This document shows positions 4,678-23,717 of a DNA stretch of 32,000 nt, in pieces (within the stretch, counting starts at the first letter, position 1; the number at the start of each line of letters is the position of its first letter). The DNA lies in contig URFW01000002.1 of the NCBI GenBank assembly GCA_900547225.1, positions 140,392-172,391 of the forward strand, in the 5' to 3' direction. The notes under the pieces were generated by a model that worked only from the letters and a program-made list of their open reading frames with translations, had not been told where the DNA came from and did no database searches. Origin of the DNA: an uncultured Mycoplasmatota bacterium. GTDB lineage: Bacteria > Bacillota_I > Bacilli_A > RF39 > UBA660. Position numbers and translations under genes: made by a program.

Positions 4678-4712
4678 TTAGATGGATTAATCAACTATCT
4701 TTTATTTTTTAT
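4665..4712 (+). terminator. rho-independent terminator after cargo A
   Basis: AAAAGATAGTT (4665-4675) pairs with AACTATCTTTT (4693-4703), followed by ATTTTTTATT. Confidence 0.5.
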
Positions 4713-4751
4713 TAGATTGAATTGAAATAATAGTGATTAAAGAAAGGATAA

Positions 4752-5998: not shown

Positions 5999-6037
5999 AT
6001 AAATTGTTATTTTTATGAAATGATGATATAATTTTAT

Positions 6038-7261: not shown

Positions 7262-7303
7262 CACTAAATAATATATTTTATATAATTGTAGCAAGTGAAC
7301 GGA

Positions 7304-7320
7304 TGTGGACACTGTCCACA
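7304..7320. repeat. perfect 17-bp palindrome TGTGGACA-C-TGTCCACA in the right arm of the islet
   Basis: Read directly. A third TGTGGACA copy lies in the left arm at 3815-3822. Confidence 0.8.
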
Positions 7321-7350
7321 ATATGTACACGTTAGAGAAATACTTATAGT

Positions 7351-7444
7351 ACAGGTAATATCATAAATACAAATAATATAGATGTTACCTAGTCTGGAAA
7401 AGCCTGAAATACAGGTAATATTATAAATACAAATAATACAGATA
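7351..7444 (+). repeat. two ~33-bp direct repeats spaced 60 bp apart (candidate integrase arm-type sites or iterons)
   Basis: 7351-7383 ACAGGTAATATCATAAATACAAATAATATAGAT and 7411-7443 ACAGGTAATATTATAAATACAAATAATACAGAT differ at 2 of 33 positions. Confidence 0.75.
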
Positions 7445-7464
7445 ATATGGGAGTACAAAGTTCA

Positions 7465-7506
7465 TGTGGCTCAGGAAAAAAATACAAACAATGCTGTGGA
7501 AAGTAG
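7465..7506 (+). repeat. displaced secA 3' fragment (attR-side copy of the SecA zinc-finger tail)
   Basis: In frame it reads CGSGKKYKQCCGK-stop. The upstream in-frame codons (..SS) lack the first Cys, and no ORF or RBS precedes it. Confidence 0.7.
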
Positions 7507-7507
7507 G

Positions 7508-7545
7508 CTCGCAAAGCCTTATAAATAAATGGCTTGCGAGTTTTT
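7508..7545 (+). terminator. rho-independent terminator, probably the native secA terminator
   Basis: CTCGCAAAGCC (7508-7518) pairs with GGCTTGCGAG (7531-7540) with one bulged A, followed by TTTTT (7541-7545). Confidence 0.75.
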
Positions 7546-7690
7546 CTATGATTACAATATTTAGGTAATTTTAGGAATGTCTTTTGTCTTAGATAAGTTG
7601 TTGAATAAAAACTTGCAATGTTTCAATAAAAAATTCTCTAAAAATTAATATTTATTACTATCTGATGCAATAAGAGGCTAAGATTTATTC

Positions 7691-7718
7691 TTAGTCTTTT
7701 TATAATTTATGATATAAT
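7691..7718 (+). promoter_or_regulatory. candidate promoter of the WYL regulator gene with extended -10
   Basis: TGaTATAAT: TG at 7710-7711 and TATAAT at 7713-7718. Weak -35 TTAGTC at 7691-7696. An inverted repeat CTAAGA/TCTTAG (about 7678-7695) overlaps the -35 and could be an operator. Confidence 0.35.
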
Positions 7719-7734
7719 GAATGTAGGTGATTTT

Positions 7735-8337
7735 ATGTCTAAAGTATCTAATGTTATAACAATGCTAGAATTGTTACAAAACGGAAAAAAATATAGTATT
7801 AATGAACTTTCTAAAGAGCTTGAAGTATCAGAAAGGATGATTAGAGTTTATAAAGAAGATTTAGAAAAAGCAGGAATTTATGTAGATACAATTATGGGAC
7901 CATATGGAGGATATGTATTAAATCAGCAGATTCGTATGCCAATTAGAAAATTTAAATTAAAAGATACAAAATTATTAGATAAATATATATTAAAAGAAAA
8001 AGATAAGAAGATAAAAGAAGAATTAATTATGCTTCAAGATAAAATAAAAGGAGTTTATATAGGGAGCAAACAAGAAGAAAAAGAGTTAAATTTAAAAGAA
8101 GAAACTGGAAAAAAATACAATTTGTTAACAAGAGCCATAAAAGAAAAAAGAAAAGTTAAATTATTGTATTATTCTTATGGTAAGGGTGAAAATCAAAGAA
8201 TTATATATCCTGCTGAAATGTTTTTGTTTCAAAATGGTTGGTACTGTGCAGCATTTTGTGAAATGAGACAAGATATTAGACATTTTGAATTGAAAAGAAT
8301 AATAAATTGTGAATTATTAGATGAAAAATATGAGTAG
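7735..8337 (+). CDS. HTH plus WYL domain transcriptional regulator (YafY/BrxR/CapW-like architecture)
   Basis: N-terminal winged HTH (ITMLELLQNGKKYSINELSKELEVSERMIRVYKEDLEKAG). C-terminal WYL domain (KVKLLYYSYGKGENQRIIYPAEMFLFQNGWYCAAFCEMRQDIRHFELKRI). The track ORF starts at 7717, but that ATG overlaps the -10 box. ATG 7735 follows AGGTGA. Confidence 0.8.
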   Translation: MSKVSNVITMLELLQNGKKYSINELSKELEVSERMIRVYKEDLEKAGIYVDTIMGPYGGYVLNQQIRMPIRKFKLKDTKLLDKYILKEKDKKIKEELIMLQDKIKGVYIGSKQEEKELNLKEETGKKYNLLTRAIKEKRKVKLLYYSYGKGENQRIIYPAEMFLFQNGWYCAAFCEMRQDIRHFELKRIINCELLDEKYE

Positions 8338-8349
8338 ACGAAATATTGC

Positions 8350-8381
8350 CTCCTTTTAAGTTATAGTTAACTTAAAAGGAG
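8350..8381 (+). promoter_or_regulatory. perfect 14-bp hairpin whose 3' arm contains the RBS of the downstream gene
   Basis: CTCCTTTTAAGTTA (8350-8363), loop TAGT, TAACTTAAAAGGAG (8368-8381). The AAAGGAG SD of the ATG at 8389 lies inside the 3' arm. No U-tract follows. Confidence 0.7.
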
Positions 8382-8388
8382 AATTATT

Positions 8389-9663
8389 ATGGAAAATAAA
8401 AAATTTATAAAACTGATATTAAATGATGAATATATTAATTGGATTAATATTTTTATTGAACAATATGGGGAATTTGACGATTGCTATTTTCTGCACAACG
8501 GTAGAGAATTTTTAAGCGAAAAAGACCTTATTTTTATTGGTTATATATCAACTTTGTTTGATCAAATTAATAAATATGGATTTAAAAATGGGATTACATT
8601 TAAAAATACATTTTGTTATTTGCTAAAATACAATGAAAAATTTTATGAAATTTTTGATAACGGAGATTGTTACTGTTGTAAAATTGGTGAAAAAGATGAT
8701 AATGTGCCAGTAATAGACTATAATCAATTCAAAAAATATTATCAAAAAAATATGCAAGTTAATTTTGATATTTTAAAAGAAAGAGTTATTGATTCATTAG
8801 AATCTACTGATTTGAAATTTATTAGAAAAGAATTATCTAAATTAAGTGGTCCAACATTATTTAGTGGTGTTGGAGGCTCAAGTGTGGTTAGTGAATTTGG
8901 AGCAAAGGTTATTAATGCTAAAAACGGTATAGTTTCAATAAATAGTGAGCCAAGAGACTTCTTATATCAAAATAATAAAGCATTTAAAAATGTTATATCA
9001 TGTAGTTACAGCGGAAATAATTACGGAGTTGAATTATCTTTTGAAAATCAGTTAAAAAAATATCTATTATCCAACAACTCTTTTAATGATAGTGATGTAA
9101 CTTATTTAAAATATAATACTAATATTCCAAAAGAAAATAGTTTTATTTCTGTTGGTGCTACATTAATTCCGGTAAGCATATTGATGGACTATTATTTAAA
9201 TGGACAAAAAAATTTGATATTAGATTGTATAGAAGAATCATCATTTGAATTTGATTTAGAAAGTGATATATACGAAATATTTAGTGGTTACGATACAAGT
9301 GTGGCATCAAAATATTTAGAATCAACTATGGTTGAATCCGGAATTGGAATACCAATAGTTCATGATAAATATTCTTATTGTCACGGTAGGAGTACACTTG
9401 CTATTAATTATAATAATGTAGCTATTTATTATAATAGAAATACTGAATTTGACAGAATCATGCTAGAAGAATTGAAAAAATATTATAGTAGAATTATCAC
9501 TATTGATTCCAAATTTGAAGACCAAATATTAGATGATTATCAAATGCTTGTGCAAAGTATGTATCTAACAAAGTATATTTCTTATAAAAAAGAAAAAGAT
9601 TTATCCAAAGTAGAATATTCACCAATAACAAAAAAATTGTATAAATATAATGGTCAAATTTAA
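8389..9663 (+). CDS. hypothetical protein: unknown Cys-containing N-terminal domain plus a SIS-like (sugar-isomerase-fold) ligand-binding region
   Basis: 424 aa. LFSGVGGSSVVSEFGAKV..., VISCSYSGNNYGVE and SFISVGATLIPVSIL match the G-x-G-x-S / S-x-SG-x-T / helical layout of SIS domains. A second degenerate half (IFSGYDTSVASKYLE...YCHGRS) follows. The N-terminal ~140 aa is unrecognised. Confidence 0.6.
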   Translation: MENKKFIKLILNDEYINWINIFIEQYGEFDDCYFLHNGREFLSEKDLIFIGYISTLFDQINKYGFKNGITFKNTFCYLLKYNEKFYEIFDNGDCYCCKIGEKDDNVPVIDYNQFKKYYQKNMQVNFDILKERVIDSLESTDLKFIRKELSKLSGPTLFSGVGGSSVVSEFGAKVINAKNGIVSINSEPRDFLYQNNKAFKNVISCSYSGNNYGVELSFENQLKKYLLSNNSFNDSDVTYLKYNTNIPKENSFISVGATLIPVSILMDYYLNGQKNLILDCIEESSFEFDLESDIYEIFSGYDTSVASKYLESTMVESGIGIPIVHDKYSYCHGRSTLAINYNNVAIYYNRNTEFDRIMLEELKKYYSRIITIDSKFEDQILDDYQMLVQSMYLTKYISYKKEKDLSKVEYSPITKKLYKYNGQI

Positions 9664-9868: not shown

Positions 9869-10985
9869 ATGGAGATTACAAATAAAGATATAGAAATATT
9901 AAATAGAAAGTTTAATCAAATATGGAGGTCTCTTTGAGGTAGAAGAAAAACAAAAAGAGATAAAAAAACTAAATGAAAAATTATCAGAACCAAATATTTG
10001 GGATGATAGTAAGAATGCAGAAAAACTAACTAAAAAAATGAGTGAATTAAATGAGATTATTAATCCTATTATTAAGTTGAAAGAAAATATAGATACTTTA
10101 AATCAGTTTAAAGAGTTTGATGAAAATACCTTAGATTCTGCTTTAAAAAAAGAATTTGAAAAATTATATGAAAATTCTACTATAGAGTTAGAAAAGCAAG
10201 AAACTCTTACATATTTATCTGGAAAATTTGATAATAATGCCGCCATTTTTGAAATACACGCCGGGGCAGGTGGTACGGAAAGTTGTGATTGGGCAATGAT
10301 GCTTTCTAGAATGTACACAAAATATTTTGATAAAAAAAATTATTCATATGAAGTAATAGATGAGCAAGAAGGCGAAGAGGCCGGAATAAAAAGTATTGTG
10401 TACATTGTAAAAGGAGCATATGCTTACGGGTATTTAAAAAACGAAAAAGGGGTTCATAGGCTAGTTAGATTATCTCCGTTCGACTCAAATAACAGGCGTC
10501 ATACTTCTTTTGCAGCAGTTGATGTTATACCAGAATTTGACGACGATATAGATATAGAAATAAAAGATTCCGACGTTAGAATAGACGTATATAGAAGTAG
10601 TGGGGCCGGGGGACAAGGAGTAAATACAACTGATTCTGCTGTTAGGGTAACTCATATACCAACTGGAATAGTAGTTACTTGTCAAAACGAACGAAGTCAG
10701 ATAAAAAATAAAGAAACAGCACTTAAAGTTTTAAAAAGTAAGCTTTATCAAATAGAACTAAAAATGAGAAAAGAAAAAATAGATTCTATGAAAAGTGACC
10801 ATAGTGGAATAGAATTTGGATCACAAATAAGAAGTTATGTACTTCATCCATACTCAATGATAAAAGACCATAGAACAGGTTATGAAACATCTAATGTTAA
10901 TAAAGTTTTAGATGGTAATTTAGACGGATTTATAGAAAGTAATTTAAAAGGAGAAAAAATAAATGAGACTAATAAGAAAAATTAG
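9869..10985 (+). CDS. prfB: peptide chain release factor 2, requiring a programmed +1 frameshift at codon 23
   Basis: Frame 0 reads MEITNKDIEILNRKFNQIWRSL, then TGA (9935-9937). The +1 frame continues EVEEKQKEIKKL... into the 315-aa track ORF, which has SPF (RLSPFDS) and GGQ (GAGGQGVNTTDSAVR) motifs. Confidence 0.95.
9924..9937 (+). promoter_or_regulatory. RF2 autoregulatory +1 frameshift site
   Basis: Internal SD-like GGAGG (9924-9928), 3 nt, then CTT TGA (9932-9937). This is the canonical SD-CUU-UGA arrangement. Confidence 0.9.
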
Positions 10986-11899: not shown

Positions 11900-12598
11900 A
11901 TGGAATTTATTAAATTTAGAAATGTTGAAAAAACATACAAAAATGGTGTAAACGCTGTGTATGATATGAACCTTGATATAAAAAAAGGTGAGTTCGTATT
12001 TGTAATAGGGGCATCAGGTTCAGGTAAATCTACCCTTATAAAAATGTTATATCGTGAAGAAAGACCAACTAATGGAGAAATTTATGTTGGTGGTATAAAC
12101 GTTGCAAAAGTAAAAAATAATAAGGTTTATAAATTAAGAAGAAAAATTGGAATAGTGTTTCAAGATTATAAATTATTGCCAAAACTAACCGTATATGAAA
12201 ACGTAGCTTTTGCACTTGAAATATATGGTCTTCCAACTAATGAGGTAAAAAGAAAAGTATTAAAGGCTCTTGATTTAGTTGGTTTAAAATCAAAAACCAA
12301 GAGTTATCCAAACCAATTGTCAGGAGGAGAACAACAACGTGTTGCAATAGCGCGTGCAATAGTTAACTCTCCAAAACTTTTGATTTGTGATGAACCAACA
12401 GGTAACCTAGATCCAGATACAAGTTTAGAAGTTATGAAAGTAATTGAGAAAATTAACGATTTAGGTACTACCGTTGTAATGGCTACTCATGATAGAGAAA
12501 TGGTTAATAAGATGAAGAAAAGAGTCGTTTTATTAGACAATGGAAAACTTGTAAAAGATTATGAGAAAGGAAGTTATACTCATTATGAAAGCAATTAG
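11900..12598 (+). CDS. ftsE: cell-division ABC transporter ATP-binding protein FtsE
   Basis: [13 protein letters not shown]..., Walker [10 protein letters not shown], signature [14 protein letters not shown], Walker [24 protein letters not shown] before ATG 11900. The track ORF start at 11819 is an unsupported extension. Confidence 0.93.
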
Positions 12599-13484
12599 AA
12601 TACTTGGAAGAAACATAAGGGATGGATTTAAAAGCGTAGGAAGAAACTTGAGCTTATCAATTGCATCTATCTCGTGTATTACAATTACATTACTAATAGT
12701 AGGAATAGCGCTAATAGCATCATACAACGTAGAAAATATGACTAAATTAGTTAAAGAAGACTTTACGATAGTAACATTTATCGATACAAGTGCAACAAAT
12801 GAACAAATAGAAGATTTAAAGAAAAACATAGAATCATATAAAAACGTGGAATCTGTTGAACATCAAACTAAAACACAAATAGCAGATGAAATGAAAGATA
12901 CTTCTGAATCGCTTTCTGCAATTATAGATAGTTGGTCAGATAATACTAATCCTTTATATGATACGTTACTAGTTAAAGTTAAAGATACTGAAAAAATATC
13001 AAAAACCGCAGAGCAAGTAAAAGAATTAGGATTAGTTAAAGATGTAAGATATGGACAAGGAATGGTAGAAAACCTTCTTAAAGTATTTAAAGTTTTAGAA
13101 AAAGCAATGATAATTGCAATGATAGCATTAGTTTTTGTAACCTTATTCTTAATTACTAACACAATTAAAATAACTATCTTCTCAAGAAAAAGAGAAATAG
13201 AAATAATGAGACTTGTTGGAGCATCTAACTTCTCAATTAAGCAACCATTTGTAATTGAAGGATTTTGTCTAGGATTTATAGGAGCATTAATACCTATTGC
13301 AGCAACTTTATATGGGTACTCAGCACTATATAAACATTTTAATGGACAATTATTCTCACCATTTGTTAAATTAGTTCCAGCAGAACCATTTATATACTGG
13401 GTATCATTAATATTGTTAGGATTAGGTGTTGTTGTTGGTATGTTTGGTAGTTATAGAGCAGTAAGGAAGTACTTAAAGATATAA
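12585..13484 (+). CDS. ftsX: cell-division permease-like protein FtsX
   Basis: [21 protein letters not shown]..., a large extracytoplasmic loop, and a C-terminal FtsX domain (RKREIEIMRLVGASNFSIKQPFVIEG). Overlaps the ftsE end. Confidence 0.9.
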   Translation: MKAIRILGRNIRDGFKSVGRNLSLSIASISCITITLLIVGIALIASYNVENMTKLVKEDFTIVTFIDTSATNEQIEDLKKNIESYKNVESVEHQTKTQIADEMKDTSESLSAIIDSWSDNTNPLYDTLLVKVKDTEKISKTAEQVKELGLVKDVRYGQGMVENLLKVFKVLEKAMIIAMIALVFVTLFLITNTIKITIFSRKREIEIMRLVGASNFSIKQPFVIEGFCLGFIGALIPIAATLYGYSALYKHFNGQLFSPFVKLVPAEPFIYWVSLILLGLGVVVGMFGSYRAVRKYLKI

Positions 13485-14707
13485 TGAAGAAAATATTAAG
13501 ATATAGTTTATTACTATTTATATTACTTTTAATACCAATTACAACAGTAAATGCAAAGGAAAAAACACTAGGGCAGTGGAAAACTGAACTAAATAAAATT
13601 CAAAAACAATTAGAAGATACAAATAATAAGAAAGCTCAAAACCAAAAAGACATAGATAATACCAATAGTAGAATTAATTCAATTTATTCTCAAATGGAAA
13701 AAATTAATAGCGATATAGATAAGAAAACTAAAGAAAGTGAGCAACTAGAAAAAGACATAGATAAAAAGAATAACGAAACAAAAGATTTGATGCGTTATTA
13801 TCAGGTTTCATCTTCTGGTTCATCAATGCTTGAATACATAATGGGTGCAGAAAGTTTGACGGATTTAATTTATCGTTTATCTATTACTGAACAAATTTCT
13901 AACTATAATAAAAAAGTAGTAGAAGAAATGAATAGTATGATTAAGGAAAATGATAAAATAAAAACCGAGTTAGCTAGTAAAAAAGATGAACTTGCTTCGC
14001 TACAATCTGAACTTAATACACAAGTAGCTAAGTTAAACGAGACTAAAGCAAGTTTAAATGATGAGGGACATTCTCAGGAAGAGTCTATCAAAGAGATGAA
14101 AAACACCATTAAATATCTTGAGGGATTAGGTTGTAAGGATAGCGAAACTCAAACATCTTGTTTAAATAGGAAATATTCTCATAAAAATAATGGTTCATCA
14201 GGAGGAAGTGGCGGCAGTTATTTGCCTTCTGGAACAACTTTTTATAGACCAACGTCTTCTGGAAGAATATCAAGTGAATATGGTTGGAGAACGTTATATG
14301 GAAAGCCTAATTTACATGCTGCAATTGATATTTCAACGCCTATTGGAACAACCGTTTATGCAGTAGCACCAGGCTATGTTGCAAAAACAATAAGAAGTAA
14401 TAGCGGCGGCGGCAACCAAATAATAATTCACCATTTAATAAATGGCAGATATTATACATCTTATTATTGTCACTTATCAGCGTTTAATGTATCGGTTGGA
14501 CAAATAGTTACTAAAGATACTGTAATAGGAAAATCAGGAAATACCGGTAATTCAACAGGACCGCACTTACATTTAGGATTAGCAAATGGTAGGTGGTATG
14601 CTGACTATTATTCATATTATGGAAACAATGGTTTTATAGGACACTCATTTAATCCAAGAAATGCTATAGTATTCCCATCAAAAGGACAGAGCTATTACAA
14701 TAGATAA
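13484..14707 (+). CDS. secreted coiled-coil M23 (LytM-type) peptidoglycan endopeptidase, a likely FtsEX partner (EnvC/PcsB-like organisation)
   Basis: Signal peptide, ~200 aa of coiled coil, a Gly/Ser linker, then an M23 domain (HAAIDISTPIGTTVYAVAPGYV ... GNTGNSTGPHLHLGL). The start overlaps the ftsX stop (TAATG). Confidence 0.88.
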   Translation: MKKILRYSLLLFILLLIPITTVNAKEKTLGQWKTELNKIQKQLEDTNNKKAQNQKDIDNTNSRINSIYSQMEKINSDIDKKTKESEQLEKDIDKKNNETKDLMRYYQVSSSGSSMLEYIMGAESLTDLIYRLSITEQISNYNKKVVEEMNSMIKENDKIKTELASKKDELASLQSELNTQVAKLNETKASLNDEGHSQEESIKEMKNTIKYLEGLGCKDSETQTSCLNRKYSHKNNGSSGGSGGSYLPSGTTFYRPTSSGRISSEYGWRTLYGKPNLHAAIDISTPIGTTVYAVAPGYVAKTIRSNSGGGNQIIIHHLINGRYYTSYYCHLSAFNVSVGQIVTKDTVIGKSGNTGNSTGPHLHLGLANGRWYADYYSYYGNNGFIGHSFNPRNAIVFPSKGQSYYNR

Positions 14708-14716
14708 AAAAGTCTA

Positions 14717-14748
14717 AAAAAGTCAAGTTTTTAAACTTGACTTTTTTA
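14717..14748 (+). terminator. rho-independent terminator ending the ftsEX-M23 operon
   Basis: AAGTCAAGTTT (14720-14730) pairs with AAACTTGACTT (14733-14743), followed by TTTT. Confidence 0.8.
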
Positions 14749-14769
14749 ATGTTTACGTCAAGAAAAATA

Positions 14770-14798
14770 TTGATTTTTGTCGAATTTTTCGGTATATT
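14770..14798 (+). promoter_or_regulatory. candidate sigma-A promoter of the secretion/assembly operon
   Basis: TTGATT (14770-14775), 17 nt, TATATT (14793-14798). This leaves a ~90-nt leader before the first gene. Confidence 0.4.
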
Positions 14799-14892
14799 TT
14801 TATAGTAGGATAGCCGGGTCTAAGTAGTTTAGTGGTTATCTAAAAGAAGCATTAAATGTCTTCAATATTTCATACAAAAGGAGGTGAATAAC

Positions 14893-15423
14893 GTGAATCA
14901 AAAGAAAAAGAAAGGATTAATAGCTTTAGTAATACTACTTGTAGTAGCTATTGGTGTTGGTTTTGCAGCATCACAAGACGCAGTAAATATTACTGGTACT
15001 GCAAGCGCTGTTGCAACAGATTTTGATATTCAGTTTAAAACAGATGCTACTATAACAACCGAAAAGAGCGCTGGTGCTACAATAGTTGCTTCAGGTGCTT
15101 ATGGTACTGATGGAAATGCTGATGCTACAATGACTGTTTCTGGATTAAAGAACGCTAATGATTATGCAGAAGCAACTTATACTATCATAAACAAAAGTAC
15201 TGATGTAAACGCTGACATTACAGCAAAAGTATCATCTGCTATTGAAGATGCAGATCATTATAATGTTGAAGTAACAGGTGGTGCAAATGGTGTTGCTCCA
15301 GGTGCAACAACTACTGTAACAGTTAAAGTTACACTAAAAAAAGCTTTTGCTGATGATACAGCTGCACAGGCACCAAAATCATTCAAAATTACAGCAACTG
15401 GTGTAGCAGCTGAAGAAAAATAA
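14893..15423 (+). CDS. small secreted Ala/Thr/Gly/Val-rich protein (candidate fibre or surface-layer subunit) with a cluster-specific leader motif
   Basis: The track ORF starts at GTG 14884. GTG 14893 lies 8 nt after AGGAGG. It has a Lys-rich n-region, a hydrophobic h-region, then GFAASQDAVNITGTASAVA. The mature part has low complexity and looks beta-rich. It sits next to a SipW-type peptidase gene. Confidence 0.75.
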   Translation: MNQKKKKGLIALVILLVVAIGVGFAASQDAVNITGTASAVATDFDIQFKTDATITTEKSAGATIVASGAYGTDGNADATMTVSGLKNANDYAEATYTIINKSTDVNADITAKVSSAIEDADHYNVEVTGGANGVAPGATTTVTVKVTLKKAFADDTAAQAPKSFKITATGVAAEEK

Positions 15424-15458
15424 TATTTGGCAGAAATTAGTTAAGGAGGAGGTATATT

Positions 15459-16584
15459 ATGGCTAAAAGAAGAGATTCGGCTTATATATACTTTGCATTT
15501 GTAATAGTATTTCTTCTCCTTAATCTTCTTGTGCTAAATATTAGTGCAAAATTACAATTGTTACCCATATTTATAATTATATTTTTGTTAAGTTTTATCT
15601 TCTTTAAATTTAGAAAAGACAAAACTTATGCAAGAATTCAGGTAACTATTACAATGTTACTTATAGGAATTGTGCAAATAGTTTTATATCTTTTAACCGG
15701 CTTTTTAGAGGGCTTTTCTAAGAATGCTATTAGTATGAGTTTTAACCGTTTTTTAACCGTTATTTTACCTATTATATTAATATTAGTAGTTATTGAATTG
15801 TTAAGATATATGATATCAGTAAAATTCGAAAAAAACAATTTAATAAGAATACTTAGTATTACTATGTTTGTACTATTTGATGTGACTTTATTTGGCTCAA
15901 ACGTGAATTTTAATAGTTTGGATTCTGTATTAGAATTTTTAGGAATAACGTTTTTTCCTAGTCTGGTAAGTAATATTGTGTTTGATGATATGGTAGTTAA
16001 ATATGGATATAAACCAATACTTGTTTATAGATTATTAACAACGTTATGTTATTACATGTTGCCTATCGTTCCTAATATGTATATTTTATTTAGGGCAATT
16101 GCAAGAATTGTGATTCCGCTTATTTTTTACTTCATATTATCTTATATGTATGATAGGGTAACGTTTCAAGAAGCATTAAAGGTAAAGCCTAAAATAAGTA
16201 TTTCATCAATAATTATACTTATATTAGTAATTATTATGGCAGGTTTAATATCTTGCGAATTTAGATATGGTATTTTAACAATTGGAAGTGGTTCTATGAC
16301 TGGAACTTTAAACAAAGGAGATATTGCTTTTTTTCGAAAAATTTAATGGTCAGGAGTTAGAAATAGGTGACATTATTATATTTAAACGAGGCAAAAGAAA
16401 TATAGTCCATAGAATCACACAAGTTGGCTTATTCAATGATGAATACGTTTATATAACAAAAGGAGATAAAAATAAAGTAGAAGATAATGGGTATGTTTAT
16501 CAAAAGGATATTCAAGGGATAGTTCACTATAGGATAAAATATATCGGATACCCATCTATATGGATAAGAAATTTATTTAATTAA
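15459..16584 (+). pseudogene. polytopic membrane domain fused to an ER/archaeal-type (SipW-like) signal peptidase I, split by a frameshift at a T7 tract
   Basis: ORF 15459-16346 has ~9 TM helices and ends ...GSGSMTGTLNKGDIAFF (catalytic Ser box). ORF 16324-16584 continues FFEKFNGQELEIGDIIIFKRGKRNIVHRIT...ITKGDKNKVEDNG (His box and KGDxN box). The frames meet at T7 (16328-16334), and deleting one T fuses them. AAGGAGGAGG RBS at the 5' end. Confidence 0.8.
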
Positions 16585-16615
16585 TGTAATTAAAATTTAA
16601 AAAGGAGGTAAAGTT

Positions 16616-17710
16616 ATGGACAGAAAACAAATAAGCAAAGTTATGCAAGAAACAAAAAAAAGAACAAGAACTATTGCTATTTTGATATTTGTTGTAATAG
16701 CTGTTTTACTTGCAGCTATAAGCATAATTTTTATCTCTATAAATAGTGAGAAGAATTACTACATTCATTATGATGAAAAAAGTGATTTAGATTATAAGGT
16801 ATATTTAAAAGAAAATGATTATTTTGGAAGATATCTAGGTAAAAACAATCAATATATTGCAAGCCTAATTGATTATGTGGAGGCAGATTTTAATTACAAA
16901 TTATCAATCGATGAGAAAATTGATTATTCATATTATTATTACGTAGAAGCAACTGTTCAGGTTTTAGATACTAATGATAAACCATTATATAAAAAGGTTG
17001 ATAAAGTAGTTGAAAAACAATATTTCAAGGATCCTGTTAATCATGCTTTTGAAATAGATCAAACTGTTAATTTGGATTATAATTACTATAACAATATAGT
17101 AAATACGTTTATTAAGAGATATAACTTATCAAATGTTAAAAGTAATGTCACTTTAAGTATGTATGTTGGAATTGAAGGGGAATGTAAAGAATTTGATTCT
17201 TCTTTAGCAGACAACGCAGTTATTAGTATGAACGTCCCATTAACAACAAACACTGTTAATATTGACATGAATTATAAATTAAATAATTCTACAAACAAGT
17301 TATTAAAATGTAGAGAAGAATCAGTATTAAATAATAAATTACTTATTTTAGGCATAGTTTTATTATTCATTGATTTAGGTGTTTTGGTAGGAACTATTAG
17401 ATATTCAAAAAGAACTAGAAGCACTTTAACTATATATAATAAAAAACTAAAAAATATTTTTAATAATTATGGTCAATATATATCTAAGATTAAAACGGAG
17501 TTAAAATATGAAAAATTCCAAATTGTATTAGTTGAAGAGTTTGAGGATTTATTTGAGGTAAGAAATTCAAGTAATTCACCTATATTATTTTGCCAGGATG
17601 AAACAAAAACAAGAAGTGCCTTTGTTGTTCCAACAAATTCTGGACTAGTGTACATCTATTATTATTCAATTAGTAATGTAATTGAGCAAGGATGCAAACA
17701 TGAAAGTTAA
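16616..17710 (+). CDS. bitopic membrane protein (TM, ~210-aa extracytoplasmic domain, TM, ~100-aa cytoplasmic tail); possibly DUF5305-like
   Basis: 364 aa. TM1 is IAILIFVVIAVLLAAISIIFISI and TM2 is LLILGIVLLFIDLGVLVGTI. AAAGGAGG RBS. From memory and unverified, proteins of this layout (DUF5305) accompany SipW-type peptidases. Confidence 0.6.
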   Translation: MDRKQISKVMQETKKRTRTIAILIFVVIAVLLAAISIIFISINSEKNYYIHYDEKSDLDYKVYLKENDYFGRYLGKNNQYIASLIDYVEADFNYKLSIDEKIDYSYYYYVEATVQVLDTNDKPLYKKVDKVVEKQYFKDPVNHAFEIDQTVNLDYNYYNNIVNTFIKRYNLSNVKSNVTLSMYVGIEGECKEFDSSLADNAVISMNVPLTTNTVNIDMNYKLNNSTNKLLKCREESVLNNKLLILGIVLLFIDLGVLVGTIRYSKRTRSTLTIYNKKLKNIFNNYGQYISKIKTELKYEKFQIVLVEEFEDLFEVRNSSNSPILFCQDETKTRSAFVVPTNSGLVYIYYYSISNVIEQGCKHES

Positions 17711-20063
17711 AGATAAATTTTTAAAGGCACGAAAAAAATATAGTGATAGTAAGAAGTGGGCAATTTTTCTTATATTAACTATATTTTTATTGAATATAGG
17801 TTATGCAGCTTCAAAGGCCTCGCTTGAAATAAAGGGTAGTGCGAGTGCTGTAAAAATACCAGAATTATTTATCGAAGAAGTAAAAATAATTGACATAAAC
17901 GGATGTTCACAAAATGAACTTCCCATAACAAATGGAACTACTTTGGATACTAATATAAATTTTCCTTCTAATGAATATTCATATATAACATATCAGGTAA
18001 CTATTGCAAATGGTACGGATTCTATTCAAAAGTATACAGGAGAAACTTATAATAGCGATACATCAACTAAAAATGTTATTAATTATGAACTTACGGATGG
18101 TCTTTCTTCCGGTGAGTATTTGTTCCCTGGGGATAGTACAACATATACGTTAACTTATAAGTATAGAAACGGTGCAAGTACAGGTAATTATGATTTGAAA
18201 ATGAACTTTAATTTTGAAGATTCCGGTAAGTTTTCCGCACTTTCATATACAAATAGTGTTGATTTAACTAATAAAACTAAAGAAGCCGTAAAAATTAAGG
18301 TAATGAATAATGGAGATTCTGCAATCAATTATAATCTCAACATAGATAATACTAAATTTGAACTAACTGATATTAATGGAAATTCTTTAAGTTCTCTTTC
18401 TATAAAAGCTCATACTGAAGAAGAAATAACTGTTTATTTATCCAAAAAGTCAGATGTTACATATTACAAAACAGAATATGAAACAAACTTTAGTTTAAGT
18501 TATAATGATATTACATTAGATTTTGGAAAAATAAAAATAAAAACAAATACAACAAGTGGCTATGTTGATACAACACCTCCTCAAATAGGGACAGTATCAG
18601 TTGATATCGTATATGAAGTTGGATCAATTGATGTTACTTGGTCTAATTTAGATAATAAAAATGAGTCTCCAGTAACTAATTATGTTGTTTTACTTTATAA
18701 TGATTCGGGAACTCTTGTTACAACCGGAAACACTGGTAATTCAGATACCACCTATAGATTTAAAAATCAAGCACAAGGAAATTATTATGCTGTAGTTTAT
18801 GGTATAGACGAAGCTGAAAATTCAGGAGAAACTTATGTTTCATCTTCTTCAACATCAACAACCAATGCAAGAAAATCTGTTACAAAAGAAATGAGATGGA
18901 AAAGAACAATAACATATAATGTTACAAATATTAGTGTTGCAGGACCTAATGAGGCTAATTTGGGTGAGTCATTTACAGCTACTTTAAAACCGGATAATAA
19001 CTATAAATATAATTCTGTTCCTTCAGTTACGTCAGATGGTAAAACTTTTAAAGATTATTCAACGAATGCTGATAAATATACTATAACAATAAATCAAGTG
19101 ACAGGTGATCTAGTTATTACTGCAACAGCAGCAAGAACTGCTTGCCTTGCTAAAGGAACAAAAATATTACTTGCAAATGGCAAATATAAGAACATAGAAA
19201 ATATTAGATATGATGATTTACTAATGGTATATAATCATGAAAATGGTACATTTACTCCTGAATATCCTATTTGGATTGAAAAAGGTAATTTGTCTAGTAA
19301 TTATCAAGTAATAACATTTAGTGATGGTACTTCTTTAACAACGATCGATAAACATTCTTTATTTAGTATTGATGACAATAGATATGTTGATGTAACAGAT
19401 GAAAATACATTTCACGTTGGAACTAACATACTAAAAACAGTAAAATCTAAGAGAGGTTACAAGCTCAAAAGTGTTTCTGTAACTAATATAGAAAAGGTAA
19501 ATAAATCGATTGATTATTATAACGTTGTATCAACAAAATACTATGATATAATTGCAAACGATGTATTAACATCAGATGGAAGAACAGGACTAGTTAATTT
19601 TTATGAGTTTAAGGAAAATGCTGTTTGGTCTTCAAGAAGACAAGAAGTTATAAAGAATAATACATTCTTAAACTATGAAGATTATAAATTTATTCCGTAT
19701 TACTTGTTCCATGGCTTAAGAGCACAAGATGGAGCGGTTATAATTAAGTATAATTATATGACTAAAGAAGAATTTGAATCTGTGTTTACCGATTTATTAT
19801 TAAATAAAGAAATGGTATTAGATCCAATAACTAAAAACAAAAAAAGATATTGGATGGTAACAACATCAGATGATAAAGTAACAAGTAAAAATAAAGAAAA
19901 ATATTTACTGAAAGAAAATAGTTATTATACGTTAGAAAAACCTAAGAAAACGAAAAATTTCAAAGGTTGGTATAATACTGGCGATGGGAAGATTTATAAA
20001 CCGGGTAGTAAGGTAAAGATATATCATGGTACACATTTTGTTGCATCATATAATAAAAATTAG
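17700..20063 (+). CDS. large secreted multidomain protein: cluster leader motif, Ig/CARDB-like beta domains, FN3-like domain, Hint (bacterial intein-like) domain, unknown C-terminal region ending in a Listeria-Bacteroides-type repeat
   Basis: The track ORF starts at TTG 17682. ATG 17700 follows AAGGA. Leader: GYAASKASLEIKGSASAVK. FN3-like: PPQIGTVSVDIVYEVGSIDVTWSNL...YYAVVYGIDEAENSG. Hint block A: CLAKGTKILLANG (Cys codon 19143-19145). Hint C-terminal block: YYNVVSTKYYDIIANDVLTS. C-terminal FKGWYNTGDGKIYKPGSKVKIYHGTHFVASY. Confidence 0.85.
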   Translation: MKVKDKFLKARKKYSDSKKWAIFLILTIFLLNIGYAASKASLEIKGSASAVKIPELFIEEVKIIDINGCSQNELPITNGTTLDTNINFPSNEYSYITYQVTIANGTDSIQKYTGETYNSDTSTKNVINYELTDGLSSGEYLFPGDSTTYTLTYKYRNGASTGNYDLKMNFNFEDSGKFSALSYTNSVDLTNKTKEAVKIKVMNNGDSAINYNLNIDNTKFELTDINGNSLSSLSIKAHTEEEITVYLSKKSDVTYYKTEYETNFSLSYNDITLDFGKIKIKTNTTSGYVDTTPPQIGTVSVDIVYEVGSIDVTWSNLDNKNESPVTNYVVLLYNDSGTLVTTGNTGNSDTTYRFKNQAQGNYYAVVYGIDEAENSGETYVSSSSTSTTNARKSVTKEMRWKRTITYNVTNISVAGPNEANLGESFTATLKPDNNYKYNSVPSVTSDGKTFKDYSTNADKYTITINQVTGDLVITATAARTACLAKGTKILLANGKYKNIENIRYDDLLMVYNHENGTFTPEYPIWIEKGNLSSNYQVITFSDGTSLTTIDKHSLFSIDDNRYVDVTDENTFHVGTNILKTVKSKRGYKLKSVSVTNIEKVNKSIDYYNVVSTKYYDIIANDVLTSDGRTGLVNFYEFKENAVWSSRRQEVIKNNTFLNYEDYKFIPYYLFHGLRAQDGAVIIKYNYMTKEEFESVFTDLLLNKEMVLDPITKNKKRYWMVTTSDDKVTSKNKEKYLLKENSYYTLEKPKKTKNFKGWYNTGDGKIYKPGSKVKIYHGTHFVASYNKN

Positions 20064-20090
20064 CTCATAACTACATGAGCTAATTTTTTT
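20062..20090. terminator. hairpin terminator between convergent genes (probably bidirectional)
   Basis: AGCTCAT (20062-20068) pairs with ATGAGCT (20075-20081), followed by AATTTTTTT on the + strand. An A-rich run on the 5' side gives a U-run for the minus-strand transcript. Confidence 0.7.
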
Positions 20091-20110: not shown

Positions 20111-20497
20111 TTATTCTTTAATTATATATTTTATTACTTCTTCTACGCTTTTCTTTGTTCCATTAGTATTGTAATATATTAAAACAGTATCAATAGCAAG
20201 TTTTAGCATATTAAAATATATTATAAGTTCGCGTCCTTTAGCAGTATCTTTGTATTCATTAATATATTTTTCAAACATCTTTTTATCTTCATTTGAAAGT
20301 GGCTCTATTTCAAAATTATATTTCTTTTCTTTTTTTGCAAATCTATAAAATATCCCATTATAATACTCATCTATAAATGATAAATCACTAATTTTTACTA
20401 TATCAGGTGTTATTCTACTATTTATATTTTTTACTAGCTTTAAATCAGCTTCATATCTTTTTTCAAACAAAAATTTTAGTCTTTTATTCTCGTTCAT
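20111..20497 (-). CDS. hypothetical cytoplasmic protein, 128 aa
   Basis: AAAGGAGA RBS 7 nt upstream of the ATG. No TM segment or signal peptide and no recognised motif. One of only two supported full-length minus-strand genes in the window (the other is the XRE regulator at 22640-22960). Confidence 0.6.
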   Translation of the reverse strand: MNENKRLKFLFEKRYEADLKLVKNINSRITPDIVKISDLSFIDEYYNGIFYRFAKKEKKYNFEIEPLSNEDKKMFEKYINEYKDTAKGRELIIYFNMLKLAIDTVLIYYNTNGTKKSVEEVIKYIIKE

Positions 20498-22627: not shown

Positions 22628-22657
22628 AAAGTAGAGATTTTACTTATCTCTACTTTT
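22627..22657. terminator. 12-bp hairpin shared by the convergent uvrB and XRE gene ends
   Basis: AAAAGTAGAGAT (22627-22638) pairs with ATCTCTACTTTT (22646-22657). The 3' arm encodes the last residues (SRDK-stop) of the minus-strand XRE gene. Confidence 0.65.
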
Positions 22658-22960
22658 AATATTTTTACAATACCAAATAACATCTTTTTTCTGATTATCA
22701 CTAAGTTTATCAAATTCATATATTAATTCATCATTACAAGTAGTATCTTTTAATCTTATTGGAGTACTTATGTTTGTTCTATCTAACAAATAATCAACAG
22801 AAGTATCTAAAAAGTCTGCAAGCTTAATTAATGTATCAGCACTAGGAAGAGCTTTTCCACTTTCATATGCACTTATTGTTTCTTGTGATACCTCGGCAGC
22901 TATTGATAGTCTTATTTGAGTTATATTCTTTTTTTGTCTTAATTCTTTTAAATTCTTCAT
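22640..22960 (-). CDS. XRE-family helix-turn-helix transcriptional regulator
   Basis: 106 aa. LRQKKNITQIRLSIAAEVSQETISAYESGKALPSADTLIKLADFLDTSVDYLL is a typical HTH_3 (Cro/C1) domain. Confidence 0.85.
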   Translation of the reverse strand: MKNLKELRQKKNITQIRLSIAAEVSQETISAYESGKALPSADTLIKLADFLDTSVDYLLDRTNISTPIRLKDTTCNDELIYEFDKLSDNQKKDVIWYCKNIKSRDK

Positions 22961-23117
22961 AATACTACTTCTTTCTATATTTCTAAAATAATTTTATAAA
23001 AAGTATTTGTATTTTATAGATATATGATTTATAATATATACATATACAGATTATATTTATTATATGCAGTATCTTAATAATTATTCTGTAAATATGTAGA
23101 AAGGAGTAAGTAGTGCT

Positions 23118-23717
23118 ATGAAAGAAGAGAAAAAAACAGGATTTTCAGTTGCGTCAATGGTATTAGGAATAATTGGAATTTGCTTATCATTTATACCCAT
23201 AGTTAATAATGTTTCATTTATATTAGGTGTTTTATCTGTTATTTTTGCGATAGTTTCATTAGTTAAAAAGTCAGGCAAGGCAAAGGCAATTGTAGGATTA
23301 ATATTAGGTATATTATCTGTTGTAATAACGCTATCACTTCAAAATAGTTGGTCAAAGTCGCTAGATGATGTTGGTAAAGATTTGGATAATATGACGGGTG
23401 ATAACACAGAAGAAATATTAAAAAAAGATGTTGACGTTAATATTGGAAAATTAAATGTTACAACCGATGAATATGGTTATTCAGATTCTGAACTTGTAGT
23501 TACAGTAACAAATAAATCTAAAGAGAAAAAATCATTCACTATACATATAGAAGCAGTAGATAATACTGGAAAAAGAATAGATGATGATTATGTTTATGCA
23601 AATGACTTGAATTCTGGTCAAACGCAAGACTTTAAAATATTTACTTTAGTTTCGTCGGAAAAATTAGAACAAATGAAATCAGCTGAATTTAAAATTATTG
23701 ATGTTTCAATGGATTAG
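23118..23717 (+). CDS. membrane protein: N-terminal DUF4190-like TM hairpins plus an extracytoplasmic beta domain (DUF4352-like)
   Basis: 199 aa. GFSVASMVLGIIGICLSF..., ILGVLSVIFAIVSL and IVGLILGILSVVITL are TM helices. The C-terminal part is beta-rich (ELVVTVTNKSKEKKSFTIHIEAVDNTGKRI). AAAGGAG RBS. Divergent from the XRE gene. Confidence 0.7.
   Translation: MKEEKKTGFSVASMVLGIIGICLSFIPIVNNVSFILGVLSVIFAIVSLVKKSGKAKAIVGLILGILSVVITLSLQNSWSKSLDDVGKDLDNMTGDNTEEILKKDVDVNIGKLNVTTDEYGYSDSELVVTVTNKSKEKKSFTIHIEAVDNTGKRIDDDYVYANDLNSGQTQDFKIFTLVSSEKLEQMKSAEFKIIDVSMD

Follow-up and report, generated by a model that had tools for sequence, protein, structure and literature searches.

What a four-gene operon with its own signal peptidase makes in an uncultured human-gut bacterium of a Bacilli lineage is the question raised by this locus. 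The window (the whole stretch of DNA analysed) spans 32,000 nucleotides. We infer that the operon most likely makes a surface or matrix fibre of the TasA/AbpX type by a self-contained, chaperone-free system (probability about 0.7), and that the AbpX type is its closest described relative.

Organisation and conservation of the operon

The boundaries and genes are as follows.

14715..14748, no strand assigned: palindromic terminator hairpin that ends the ftsEX-M23 operon, with a T-run on both strands
14770..14806, + strand: candidate sigma-70-type promoter(s), TTGATT-17-TATATT and TTGTCG-18-TATAGT (9/12 matches, consensus scan)
14893..15423, + strand: g1, proposed major fibre subunit precursor, 176 aa (ORF and RBS)
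15459..16584, + strand: g2, signal peptidase I of the archaeal/ER type, with a polytopic membrane domain at its N-terminus (TIGR02228)
16616..17710, + strand: g3, DUF5305 protein with two TM segments, proposed accessory subunit of the peptidase (Pfam PF17231)
17700..20063, + strand: g4, proposed minor subunit of 787 aa (ATG at 17700; the alternative TTG at 17682 gives 793 aa)
20055..20088, + strand: terminator hairpin with T-run that ends the g1-g4 operon (sequence and RNA fold)

The four-gene operon is real. All four genes lie on the + strand between two hairpins, each followed by a T-run. The upstream hairpin folds as RNA with -16.3 kcal/mol (z -5.1 against shuffles; the terminator scan puts it on the - strand) and the downstream hairpin with -15.0 kcal/mol (z -5.9), in agreement with the two terminators of the first-pass annotation. 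The good ribosome binding sites and tight or overlapping genes that it described were also found: a GGAGG Shine-Dalgarno sequence precedes g1, g2 and g3, and the last 11 nt of g3 lie within g4. The ORF coordinates give the sizes it had listed, namely 176 aa (GTG at 14893) or 179 aa (start at 14884) for g1 and 787-793 aa for g4. The promoters are weak candidates, the region overall not being enriched against shuffles. An Rfam search of the operon leader returned no element.

Of 80 related loci, 51 have g1-g4 in colinear order, so their proposed co-occurrence in other genomes was borne out. The operon is present at the same site in all the same-species assemblies fetched (6/6), and in other species it is mostly found in different contexts. 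The idea of an accessory insertion is thus correct only in part.

The proposed small subunit g1

The g1 precursor has a signal peptide with a predicted cleavage site ('GFA↓ASQD'); the N-terminal strand behind it is amphipathic, and the core is modelled as a beta-sandwich. In the AF2 model, the strand is extended (aa 28-39) and the core has a pLDDT of about 90. The g1 family comprises 2514 representative clusters, and its best-conserved part is the cleavage site ('G-[FY]-A', conserved in g1) together with the alternating-hydrophobic N-terminal strand. The mature protein (about 151 aa) is acidic (pI 4.4), Ala/Thr/Gly-rich and abundant-looking, and g1 is the operon gene that varies most between strains; acidity and variability fit an exposed major subunit, as expected.

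Searches of Pfam and NCBIfam with g1 and g4 matched neither TasA/camelysin nor any other family. PF12389 was not matched by g1 and the 'AFND/AFSD' motif was missing, in line with the earlier statement that the substrates lack the TasA/camelysin signature. Profile comparison of g1 with TasA gave 0.5% (no match), and a PDB sequence search with g1 gave no match. Foldseek with the g1 model placed no TasA-family structure among the top 50 (best E-value only 2.9e-3); the best matches, all weak, were donor-strand pilins such as EcpA, FimA, DaaE and BPSL1626.

Of about 250 control ORFs, the g1-family HMMs matched those of the AbpX type only. The precursors of g1 ('AIGVGFA↓ASQDAVNITGTAS') and AbpX ('AIGLTYA↓QWSETLSLSATIS') can be aligned over signal, cleavage site and strand, and hhalign gave 92.5% with the signal peptide kept. 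This value dropped to 17.7% (E 1.4e-3) after removal of the signal peptide and to 7.6% after removal of the strand as well, which leaves homology between the g1 and AbpX cores weak and not established.

The proposed large subunit g4 and its Hint module

The first 175 aa of g4 (AF2 pLDDT 88) resemble g1 in signal, strand and first domain. Ig/fn3-like domains occupy aa 178-478, the Hint domain aa 482-626, and a conserved domain the remainder (aa 627-787). The g1-family HMMs align to g4 aa 11-157, so that the N-terminal module is common to both proteins, and the signal/cleavage/N-terminal strand motif is the same. Homologues of g4 form 65 clusters, with 90 species-level genomic matches.

A non-filamentous surface coat is a quite improbable explanation of these proteins. 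Such a coat would be either S-layer-like or a shed antigen, with g1 as a monomeric protein or one arranged in a 2-D lattice, g4 as a separate adhesin and the peptidase serving export only. The composition, apparent abundance, acidity and hypervariability of g1 are frequent in S-layer proteins and surface antigens, its polymerisation is a prediction, and its core resembles fibre subunits only weakly. However, mature g1 is small for an S-layer protein, the conservation of cleavage site and strand is more in keeping with a donor strand than with a lattice protein, and the same strand and first domain on g4 imply co-assembly. Moreover, the pairing of signal peptidase (SPase) and DUF5305 protein has so far been described only beside donor-strand fibres.

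Two further features lie in the C-terminal part of g4.

19143..19577, + strand: bacterial intein-like (Hint) domain in g4, from Cys482 onwards (AF2 and Foldseek)
19578..20060, + strand: post-Hint C-terminal domain of g4, a helical part and a small beta part, conserved

Structure prediction and Foldseek agree on the Hint domain that the first-pass annotation had assigned: the match is the BIL2 domain (6tmm, 6y75; TM 0.75-0.79, prob 1.0), and weak Pfam Hint-family matches were obtained in g4 relatives (31/52 and 12/52). Cys482, His552, Thr624 and Asp626 are invariant in the relatives, while the C-terminal His-Asn and the +1 nucleophile are both absent. The post-Hint domain, which matched nothing in Pfam or in a PDB sequence search, shows 31-65% identity over 20 relatives, with residues invariant across the family. 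The Hint domain and its 160-aa end are also carried by type IV pilin-like and TasA-like subunits in relatives.

Passages in PMC4436062 and PMC4287609 describe PT-HINT domains that free C-terminal toxins in polymorphic toxin systems. A g4 of this kind, in which Hint would free an effector, g1-g3 would be the export apparatus and the - strand ORF 20111-20497 the immunity gene, is highly improbable. A post-Hint domain outside known families and a small ORF without family assignment directly downstream of the operon would suit it, but the domain is conserved rather than polymorphic, the ORF is oriented against the operon and turned up in close relatives only, and pilin-like proteins from other classes of filament carry the same cassette. 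No Hint domain was found described in the literature on AbpX/Tafi/TasA-type fibres, in keeping with the earlier statement that it has no counterpart in tapA-sipW-tasA-like systems. The Hint plus 160-aa end module looks new on such fibres, for which a putatively self-cleaving intein-like module on the large subunit was not reported before.

The signal peptidase g2 and the DUF5305 protein g3

The assignment of g2 as a Ser-His peptidase of the ER/archaeal type was confirmed by TIGR02228 (76.7 bits, cut-off 51.85) and by the conservation of Ser279, His317, Asp336 and Asp342 in 61 relatives; the SipW equivalog score was far below its cut-off (51 bits against 190). N-terminal to the catalytic domain there are about 8-9 hydrophobic segments, close to the nine proposed. 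This fusion had been considered to lack a counterpart, which did not hold: a 2026 preprint describes AbpX loci of bacteria and archaea with a ten-TM SPase I and DUF5305 accessory genes (doi 10.64898/2026.01.04.697558), and the g2 N-domain HMM matches an SPase encoded in an archaeal AbpX-like locus (E 1.8e-15), although the P. abyssi SPase itself was not detected. Full-length g2 gave BLASTP E values of 6e-19 and 9e-14.

The g3 protein matches PF17231 (E 7.4e-15, 55.4 bits, cut-off 29). It had been annotated as bitopic, but hydropathy revealed two TM segments (aa 22-40 and 243-261). DUF5305 genes adjoin fibre-dedicated SPases in the Tafi (PMC11821415) and AbpX (10.64898/2026.01.04.697558) loci.

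In the window, g2 is not the single uninterrupted gene originally described, being split into two ORFs (15459-16346 and 16324-16584).

16328..16334, + strand: T7 homopolymer that frameshifts g2 between catalytic Ser and His (T6 in other assemblies)

The six same-species assemblies have T6 and an intact 374-aa g2. As a result of the frameshift, the fibre system may be off in this assembly. It is possible, if on balance unlikely, that the locus in this strain is a decaying or switched-off remnant, disabled by the frameshift whatever its ancestral role. The extra T parts the catalytic Ser from the catalytic His. Comparison with four other assemblies over about 20 kb shows no further single-base indel in coding sequence, indicating that the assembly is not generally error-prone. 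Against decay, the remaining operon genes are intact and 99.4-100% identical to the six same-species assemblies, a single homopolymer miscall is possible, and the truncated product has no record in any other sample and is thus not a common allele.

Proposed fibre assembly

In the fibre model, Sec would export g1 and g4, and their uncleaved signal anchors would keep both in the membrane. The peptidase g2, with its polytopic membrane domain, and the two-TM g3 would cut behind the conserved G-[FY]-A, releasing the amphipathic N-terminal beta-strand (pattern L-x-I-x-G-x-A-x-A). The freed strand would enter the beta-sandwich of a neighbour (donor-strand complementation), giving a g1 polymer. Since g4 shares the cleavage site and strand of g1 and has a similar first domain, it probably joins one fibre end as a minor subunit bearing the Ig/fn3-like stalk. 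Its Hint domain is predicted to undergo an N-S acyl shift at Ala481-Cys482 and to cut the chain there, parting a fibre-bound piece (about 455 aa) from the Hint and C-terminal piece.

Comparison with known systems

Hedgehog Hint domains move their N-terminal partner onto cholesterol. BIL2 of the Tetrahymena BUBL1 locus, which shares with the g4 Hint the fold, the N-terminal catalytic Cys and the block B His, moves its partner onto lysine amines and forms an isopeptide bond (PMC8616854). Unlike both, the g4 Hint would be extracellular, as part of a fibre subunit, with a conserved domain of 160 aa behind it; its activity is a prediction. Splicing is not expected, because it ends in T-[ST]-D-G in place of H-N plus Cys/Ser/Thr.

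The first-pass parallel with tapA-sipW-tasA of B. subtilis (dedicated SipW-type peptidase, small major subunit, large accessory subunit) was upheld by the shared motif of the substrates and the colinear genes. Both systems combine an archaeal-type Ser-His peptidase, a major subunit and an accessory protein with N-terminal strand logic; passages in PMC10151520 and PMC9674648 describe TapA donating a strand to TasA. In contrast, the PF12389 and 'AFND/AFSD' signatures are missing here, SipW has neither the polytopic N-domain nor a DUF5305 partner, and TapA has no Hint domain.

Tafi of Haloarcula hispanica shares the dedicated signal peptidase (TafD) and the DUF5305 protein (TafG). TafD is needed for subunit processing, and no Tafi are formed once tafD is deleted; models assemble the major and minor subunits by donor-strand exchange, and there is a larger anchor subunit (PMC11821415). 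However, the signals of Tafi subunits are of the twin-arginine type, those of g1 and g4 Lys-rich and of the Sec type; TafD, with four TM segments, has another layout, and Tafi has no Hint domain.

The AbpX loci (Pyrodictium abyssi AbpX and homologues) differ in several respects. In g1, similarity of the core is not significant without the signal peptide, and Ser replaces the aromatic residue conserved at mature position 2 of AbpX homologues. SLH/LPXTG anchors are lacking here, as are neighbouring c-di-GMP or histidine-kinase genes; the large subunit closes with Hint and a further domain (not mentioned in the preprint), and the host belongs to an uncultured gut Bacilli lineage. As for likenesses, the subunit is in both cases small, acidic and secreted, with a signal for SPase I and an amphipathic strand at the N-terminus, proposed here as a donor strand. 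Both also have a dedicated SPase I, of about ten TM helices, a DUF5305 accessory, and larger subunits (minor, tip or anchor) with the same donor strand. In the archaeal AbpX-like locus (L088), the AbpX homologue, SPase and DUF5305 genes stand in the same order as here.

Operon organisation and sequence context

The operon is real, conserved and of a recently recognised kind, in which a TasA-superfamily-like fibre is combined with a dedicated polytopic signal peptidase and a DUF5305 protein. The conserved Hint-bearing end subunit of the fibre appears not to have been described before. The four + strand genes lie between two hairpins, both of which fold far better than shuffled sequences and are followed by a T-run, and this bears out the four-gene operon between terminators proposed in the first-pass annotation.

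Features of the operon (window coordinates)
14715-14748: hairpin 1, -16.3 kcal/mol, z -5.1 against shuffles, T-run after it
14893-15423, + strand: g1, small subunit, 176 aa, GTG start with the best-placed GGAGG
15459-16584, + strand: g2, signal peptidase, two ORFs in the window (15459-16346 and 16324-16584)
16616-17710, + strand: g3, DUF5305 protein
17700-20063, + strand: g4, large Hint-bearing subunit, 787 aa
20055-20088: hairpin 2, -15.0 kcal/mol, z -5.9 against shuffles, T-run after it

There were no hairpins between the four genes. A GGAGG-type ribosome-binding site precedes each of g1, g2 and g3, and the first 11 nt of g4 lie within the end of g3. The promoter scan gave two candidate promoters at 14770-14806; promoter-like sites in the operon leader region were not in excess over shuffled sequence. 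No Rfam family matched the leader or the rest of the window, and no regulatory RNA was found in the leader. The G+C content of the operon (26-33%) is similar to that of its flanks.

Elsewhere in the window, prfB (RF2, 9870-10985) harbours the classic programmed +1 frameshift site GGAGG-TCT-CTT-TGA-G at about 9925-9939, and a 315-aa ORF from 10038 is the downstream part of prfB only. Between secA and prfB there is a variable island (3877-9663) whose content differs among the six same-species assemblies (L001-L006); it contains a tyrosine recombinase split in two ORFs (4752-5273 and 5309-5998), a WYL-domain regulator and family-less ORFs of 266, 407 and 424 aa. A 128-aa family-less ORF (20111-20497, - strand), found only in close relatives (L001-L008), lies between the operon terminator and uvrB. 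The stretch between uvrB and uvrA (22640-23717) carries an XRE-type HTH gene (- strand) and a DUF4190-like membrane protein, and this slot varies by strain (TM2 and PASTA/Ltp proteins in L002, empty in L005 and L006).

Distribution of the operon

The distribution scan, with one genome per species, gave 90 hits and returned 80 loci. All 80 are from uncultured MAGs; the titled sources are human stool, rumen and chicken excreta, and the depositor labels are Bacilli, Tenericutes, Mollicutes and Erysipelotrichaceae, with a few bins evidently mislabelled. The four genes were colinear (g1-g2-g3-g4) in 51 of the 80 loci, which answers the question of co-occurrence in other genomes, named beforehand as a point on which the operon reading could fail. 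Of the remaining loci, most are interrupted by contig ends or carry g1-g3 in divergent orientation to g4. Outside the window's species, the operon occupies the site between ftsEX-M23 and uvrB only in close relatives (L008). In a sheep rumen locus (L049:7950-10130), a lone 726-aa g4 homologue with a g1-like N-terminus, fn3 and Hint was found between the M23 peptidase gene and uvrB, and g1-g3 were not nearby. In a metagenome collection, 605 indexed blocks contain the identical g3 protein, and the organism is therefore common.

Two adjacent subunit-peptidase-DUF5305 modules were present in five loci (L018, L020, L056, L075 and L082; for instance, the second set at L018:10538-13888), and these genomes sometimes carry further long proteins with g1-like N-termini. 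When L008, which represents a neighbouring species, was compared to window 11900-20063, g2-g4 were 91-98% identical and ftsE/ftsX only 82-88%; this sequence comparison hints that the operon may have been recombined or transferred between species.

The small subunit g1

The g1 precursor has a Lys-rich n-region (MNQKKKKG) and a 19-aa hydrophobic core, followed by GVGFA and, across the predicted cleavage site, ASQDAVNITGTASAV. The predicted mature N-terminus ASQDAVNITGTASAV is amphipathic, with Ser at position 2 and Asp at position 4, and the mature peptide is predicted to start ASQDAVNITGTASAVATDFDIQFK (pI 4.43, 12.6% Asp+Glu). Close relatives of g1 form 55 clusters. A profile search of 1.84 billion representatives recovered 2514 relatives (clusters at 50% identity) with E <= 0.001, 860 of them with E <= 1e-10. 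Family members are almost all 165-185 aa long and start MKxKK...LGIGYAA-x4-L-x-I-x-G-x-A-x-A, and none of the ten family proteins looked up had an informative name. More than 30 separate 90%-identity clusters share more than 85% identity with g1. The best-conserved part of the family is the cleavage site together with the alternating strand, which fits recognition by a dedicated peptidase and then strand insertion.

The AF2 model of g1 (pLDDT 76, core about 90) shows an extended strand (aa 28-39) and a beta-sandwich. Foldseek matches of this model in the PDB were weak (E >= 2.9e-3) and mostly donor-strand pilins, including EcpA, FimA variants, DaaE and BPSL1626. TasA was not among the top 50 Foldseek matches, hhalign of g1 against TasA gave 0.5%, and g1 matched no PDB sequence and no Pfam or NCBIfam family, so that membership of the subunits in TasA/camelysin was rejected. 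PF12389 did not match g1, g4 or 27 relatives even at E 10, in agreement with the earlier view that both substrates lack the TasA/camelysin N-terminal signature.

Of the operon genes, g1 differs most between strains: its nucleotide identity is 92.7-99.1%, and in-frame indels of 3 and 6 nt occur at about 15069 and 15412. In five of the six same-species assemblies, the remaining genes of the operon show 99.4-100% identity. The strong variation of g1 suggests that an exposed structure is under pressure from the host or from phages.

The DUF5305 protein g3 and the possible relationship to AbpX

g3 matched PF17231 (DUF5305) at E 7.4e-15 (55.4 bits, cut-off 29). The literature matches for DUF5305 concerned donor-strand fibres throughout, and reportedly include a study of a halophilic archaeon and its Tat-dependent bundling pilus (PMC12337348). 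In the Haloarcula Tat-fimbriae, the dedicated peptidase TafD is required for subunit processing, and the DUF5305 protein TafG is encoded beside it (PMC11821415). AbpX loci of bacteria and archaea encode a ten-TM-helix SPase I, a DUF5305 'accessory' protein, minor subunits, tip proteins and anchors (bioRxiv 10.64898/2026.01.04.697558). Hydropathy revealed two hydrophobic (TM) segments in g3, as the same preprint describes for the DUF5305 accessory proteins; g3 is therefore not the bitopic protein that had been annotated.

The AbpX precursor (AIGLTYA followed by QWSETLSLSATIS) aligns to the cleavage site and strand segment of g1. With the signal peptide included, the g1 family reached 92.5% in hhalign (E 4.8e-7, 154 columns) against a set of six AbpX homologues. 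This value was not taken at face value: it fell to 17.7% when the signal peptides were removed and to 7.6% when the strand was also removed (core), and sequence therefore does not establish homology of the core. When about 250 ORFs were searched with the g1-family HMMs, the top hits were AbpX, the subunit of L088 (an archaeal locus with a weaker AbpX homologue) and its neighbour (full-length E 4.8e-12, 8e-8 and 6e-5); with mature sequences only, the AbpX-type ORFs gave E 2e-3 and 2e-2. The L088 gene order is subunit, minor subunit, 411-aa peptidase and DUF5305.

The signal peptidase g2 and its frameshift

The first-pass annotation described g2 as one SipW-type peptidase gene and overlooked a defect in the window: a T7 run (16328-16334) breaks the reading frame between the catalytic Ser and the catalytic His, leaving two ORFs. 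All six same-species assemblies (L001-L006) have T6 and an intact 374-aa g2, and in two close relatives the tract varies but stays in frame. T7 was the sole single-base coding indel over about 20 kb aligned to four same-species assemblies, which argues against a general tendency of the assembly to homopolymer errors. No other sample has the truncated product on record. Recurrent homopolymer switching was considered and rejected, given this absence and the fact that the split in L010, a related locus, is a run of N. A private null allele, an 'off' phase variant and a single miscall are all possibilities for T7.

Repaired g2 scored 76.7 bits against TIGR02228 (archaeal/ER-type signal peptidase, cut-off 51.85) but 51 bits against the SipW equivalog NF046067 (cut-off 190), so it belongs only to the wider archaeal/ER-type class. 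S279 (SxSM), H317-R318 and a TKGDxNxxxD motif are conserved in 61 relatives, as are G81, G85, F86, E113, R116, P202 and P205 in the membrane part. Hydropathy gave about 8-9 hydrophobic segments N-terminal to the catalytic domain. In full-length BLASTP, g2 aligned end to end with the peptidases of L087, the Pyrodictium abyssi AbpX locus (E 9e-14), and L088 (E 6e-19). The membrane-domain profile (aa 1-240) matched the L088 peptidase at E 1.8e-15 and no other ORF of the control set, among them further membrane proteins from the window; the P. abyssi peptidase was not detected with this profile. Given the L088 match and the ten-TM SPase I of AbpX loci, the polytopic peptidase fusion does have a counterpart, contrary to what had been annotated.

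The large subunit g4 and its Hint domain

g4 has 65 homologous clusters, all full length (28-99% identity). Its N-terminus (NIGYA followed by ASKASLEIKGSASAV) repeats the g1 motif, and the g1-family HMMs cover aa 11-157 (signal, strand and first beta domain). The AF2 model has a pLDDT of 88 (about 90 in the Hint region).

Domains of g4 (AF2 model)
aa 56-175, 178-281, 295-390 and 396-478: beta domains
aa 481-626: Hint domain
aa 629-700: helical segment
aa 710-787: small beta domain

Outside the Hint domain, Foldseek matches were to fn3/Ig arrays. The Hint domain itself matched Tetrahymena BIL2 (6tmm and 6y75; TM 0.75-0.79, rmsd about 3.5 Å, prob 1.0) and also the archaeal intein PhoCDC21-1. Cys482, His552, Thr624 and Asp626 are invariant in the family (Cys482 and His552 across 52 relatives); Cys482 is the N-terminal nucleophile and His552 the block B histidine. 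The BIL2 match and the two invariant residues confirm the annotated Hint domain, although the Pfam Hint models remained below their cut-offs: g4 scored 21.5 bits against PF05203 (cut-off 32.1), and at E <= 0.01 PF05203 was found in 31 of 52 relatives and PF01079 in 12. No paper linking Hint domains to pilins or TasA-like fibres was found in the searchable library, which agrees with the earlier statement that the Hint domain has no counterpart in such fibre systems.

The Hint domain ends in A-N-D-x-L-T-[ST]-D and the next residue is mostly Gly. A splicing intein was rejected, as there is neither a C-terminal His-Asn nor a Cys/Ser/Thr +1 nucleophile; with the end T-[ST]-D-G, the domain is expected to be capable of N-terminal cleavage or transfer only, and not of splicing. 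Conservation within g4 is highest in the Hint and post-Hint parts. The 160 aa after the Hint domain matched nothing in Pfam or in a profile search of PDB sequences, and a resemblance of the post-Hint domain to Listeria-Bacteroides repeats, seen by eye, was not confirmed by Pfam. That g4 might be a polymorphic toxin with a releasing Hint is unlikely because its C-terminal domain is conserved, not variable; moreover, the next ORF downstream, where an immunity gene would be expected, runs in the other direction and was detected among close relatives only.

The Hint cassette on other filament subunits

Hint plus the 160-aa C-terminal part of g4 (the cassette) was found on other N-terminal modules in about a dozen loci, 32-45% identical to that of g4.

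Cassette fusions in related loci
L036:7662-9992
L068:7536-8894
L065:7296-8966
L067:2145-3803
L081:7491-9278
L082:856-2592

In L036, L065, L067 and L068 the protein starts with a type IV prepilin signal (KKGFTLIELLAV...), which in L036 and L068 passes the cut-offs of both PF07963 and TIGR02532; in L068 a pilin-sized domain is joined directly to the cassette. In L081 and L082 the N-terminus (VYAYFSDSY) resembles by eye a TasA-type SipW signal, and ordinary short SipW-type peptidases are encoded near these cassette genes. Across related gut and rumen Bacilli, the cassette thus recurs as a portable end piece on subunits of three unrelated filament classes (AbpX-like, TasA-like with SipW, and type IV pilin-like). 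Bulky type IV pilins are generally found at pilus tips and, by this analogy, the pilin fusions point to a cassette that would sit at the filament tip and not at a wall anchor.

Immediately upstream of the type IV pilin-Hint gene, L036 carries a sortase gene and an LPXTG SpaA-type pilin gene (L036:5031-7570). It follows that a cell wall and sortase pili are present in some members of the lineage at least.

Proposed mechanism and comparison with known systems

From the gene content, conservation, family and fold matches, conserved catalytic residues and the N-terminal module shared by g1 and g4, we infer a pathway of export, cleavage, polymerisation, g4 placement and Hint scission. g1 and g4 would be exported by Sec, and g2 with g3 would cut after G-[FY]-A. 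The freed N-terminal strand of g1 would then insert into a neighbour to build the polymer, with g4 incorporated at one fibre end. An N-S acyl shift in the Hint domain would lead to scission at Ala481-Cys482, and the thioester could undergo either simple hydrolysis or transfer to an acceptor.

A bolder and rather unlikely reading, to which we give about one chance in five, is that the cassette is a portable, self-activating module for the covalent attachment of filament ends. The N-S acyl shift would place a thioester at the C-terminus of the fibre-bound fragment, and the post-Hint domain would present the acceptor, which might be an amine or hydroxyl on peptidoglycan, on a host or mucus molecule, or on another subunit. 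The filament end would thus be ligated covalently without sortase or ATP. The occurrence of the cassette in three filament classes points to a general function at filament ends.

TasA-superfamily fibres are an emerging matrix and adhesion scaffold common to bacteria and archaea, with examples known from Bacillus and extremophilic archaea. To our knowledge, no such fibres were known in this lineage, and we are aware of nothing known about the surface of these small-genome uncultured Bacilli, which are common in human-gut and rumen metagenomes. The locus adds these organisms to the known range of AbpX/Tafi-type machinery (a polytopic signal peptidase with DUF5305) and brings to light a large g1 family without annotation. 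The Hint end module suggests a hypothesis open to direct test, namely that filament ends may be processed or covalently attached in a new way; such attachment chemistry, if real, would be useful for protein engineering.

Hint domains of Hedgehog proteins transfer to cholesterol. Covalent attachment by the cassette would be analogous to this reaction, to thioester-domain adhesins and to that of BIL2, the nearest relative of the domain in structure, which forms isopeptide bonds to lysine (PMC8616854). Tafi subunits have twin-arginine signals, whereas the n-regions of g1 and g4 (KARKKYSDSKK in g4) are Lys-rich with no RR motif. AbpX has an aromatic residue at position 2 of its mature N-terminus, where g1 has Ser at the predicted site, and it polymerises by calcium-dependent donor-strand complementation; the monomer model of g1 has the extended strand and the beta-sandwich. 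AbpX (about pI 4, about 15% Asp/Glu) and mature g1 are both acidic with a low pI, the polytopic g2 corresponds to the SPase I with about ten TM helices encoded next to the AbpX subunit gene, and g3, like the AbpX accessory protein, is a DUF5305 protein.
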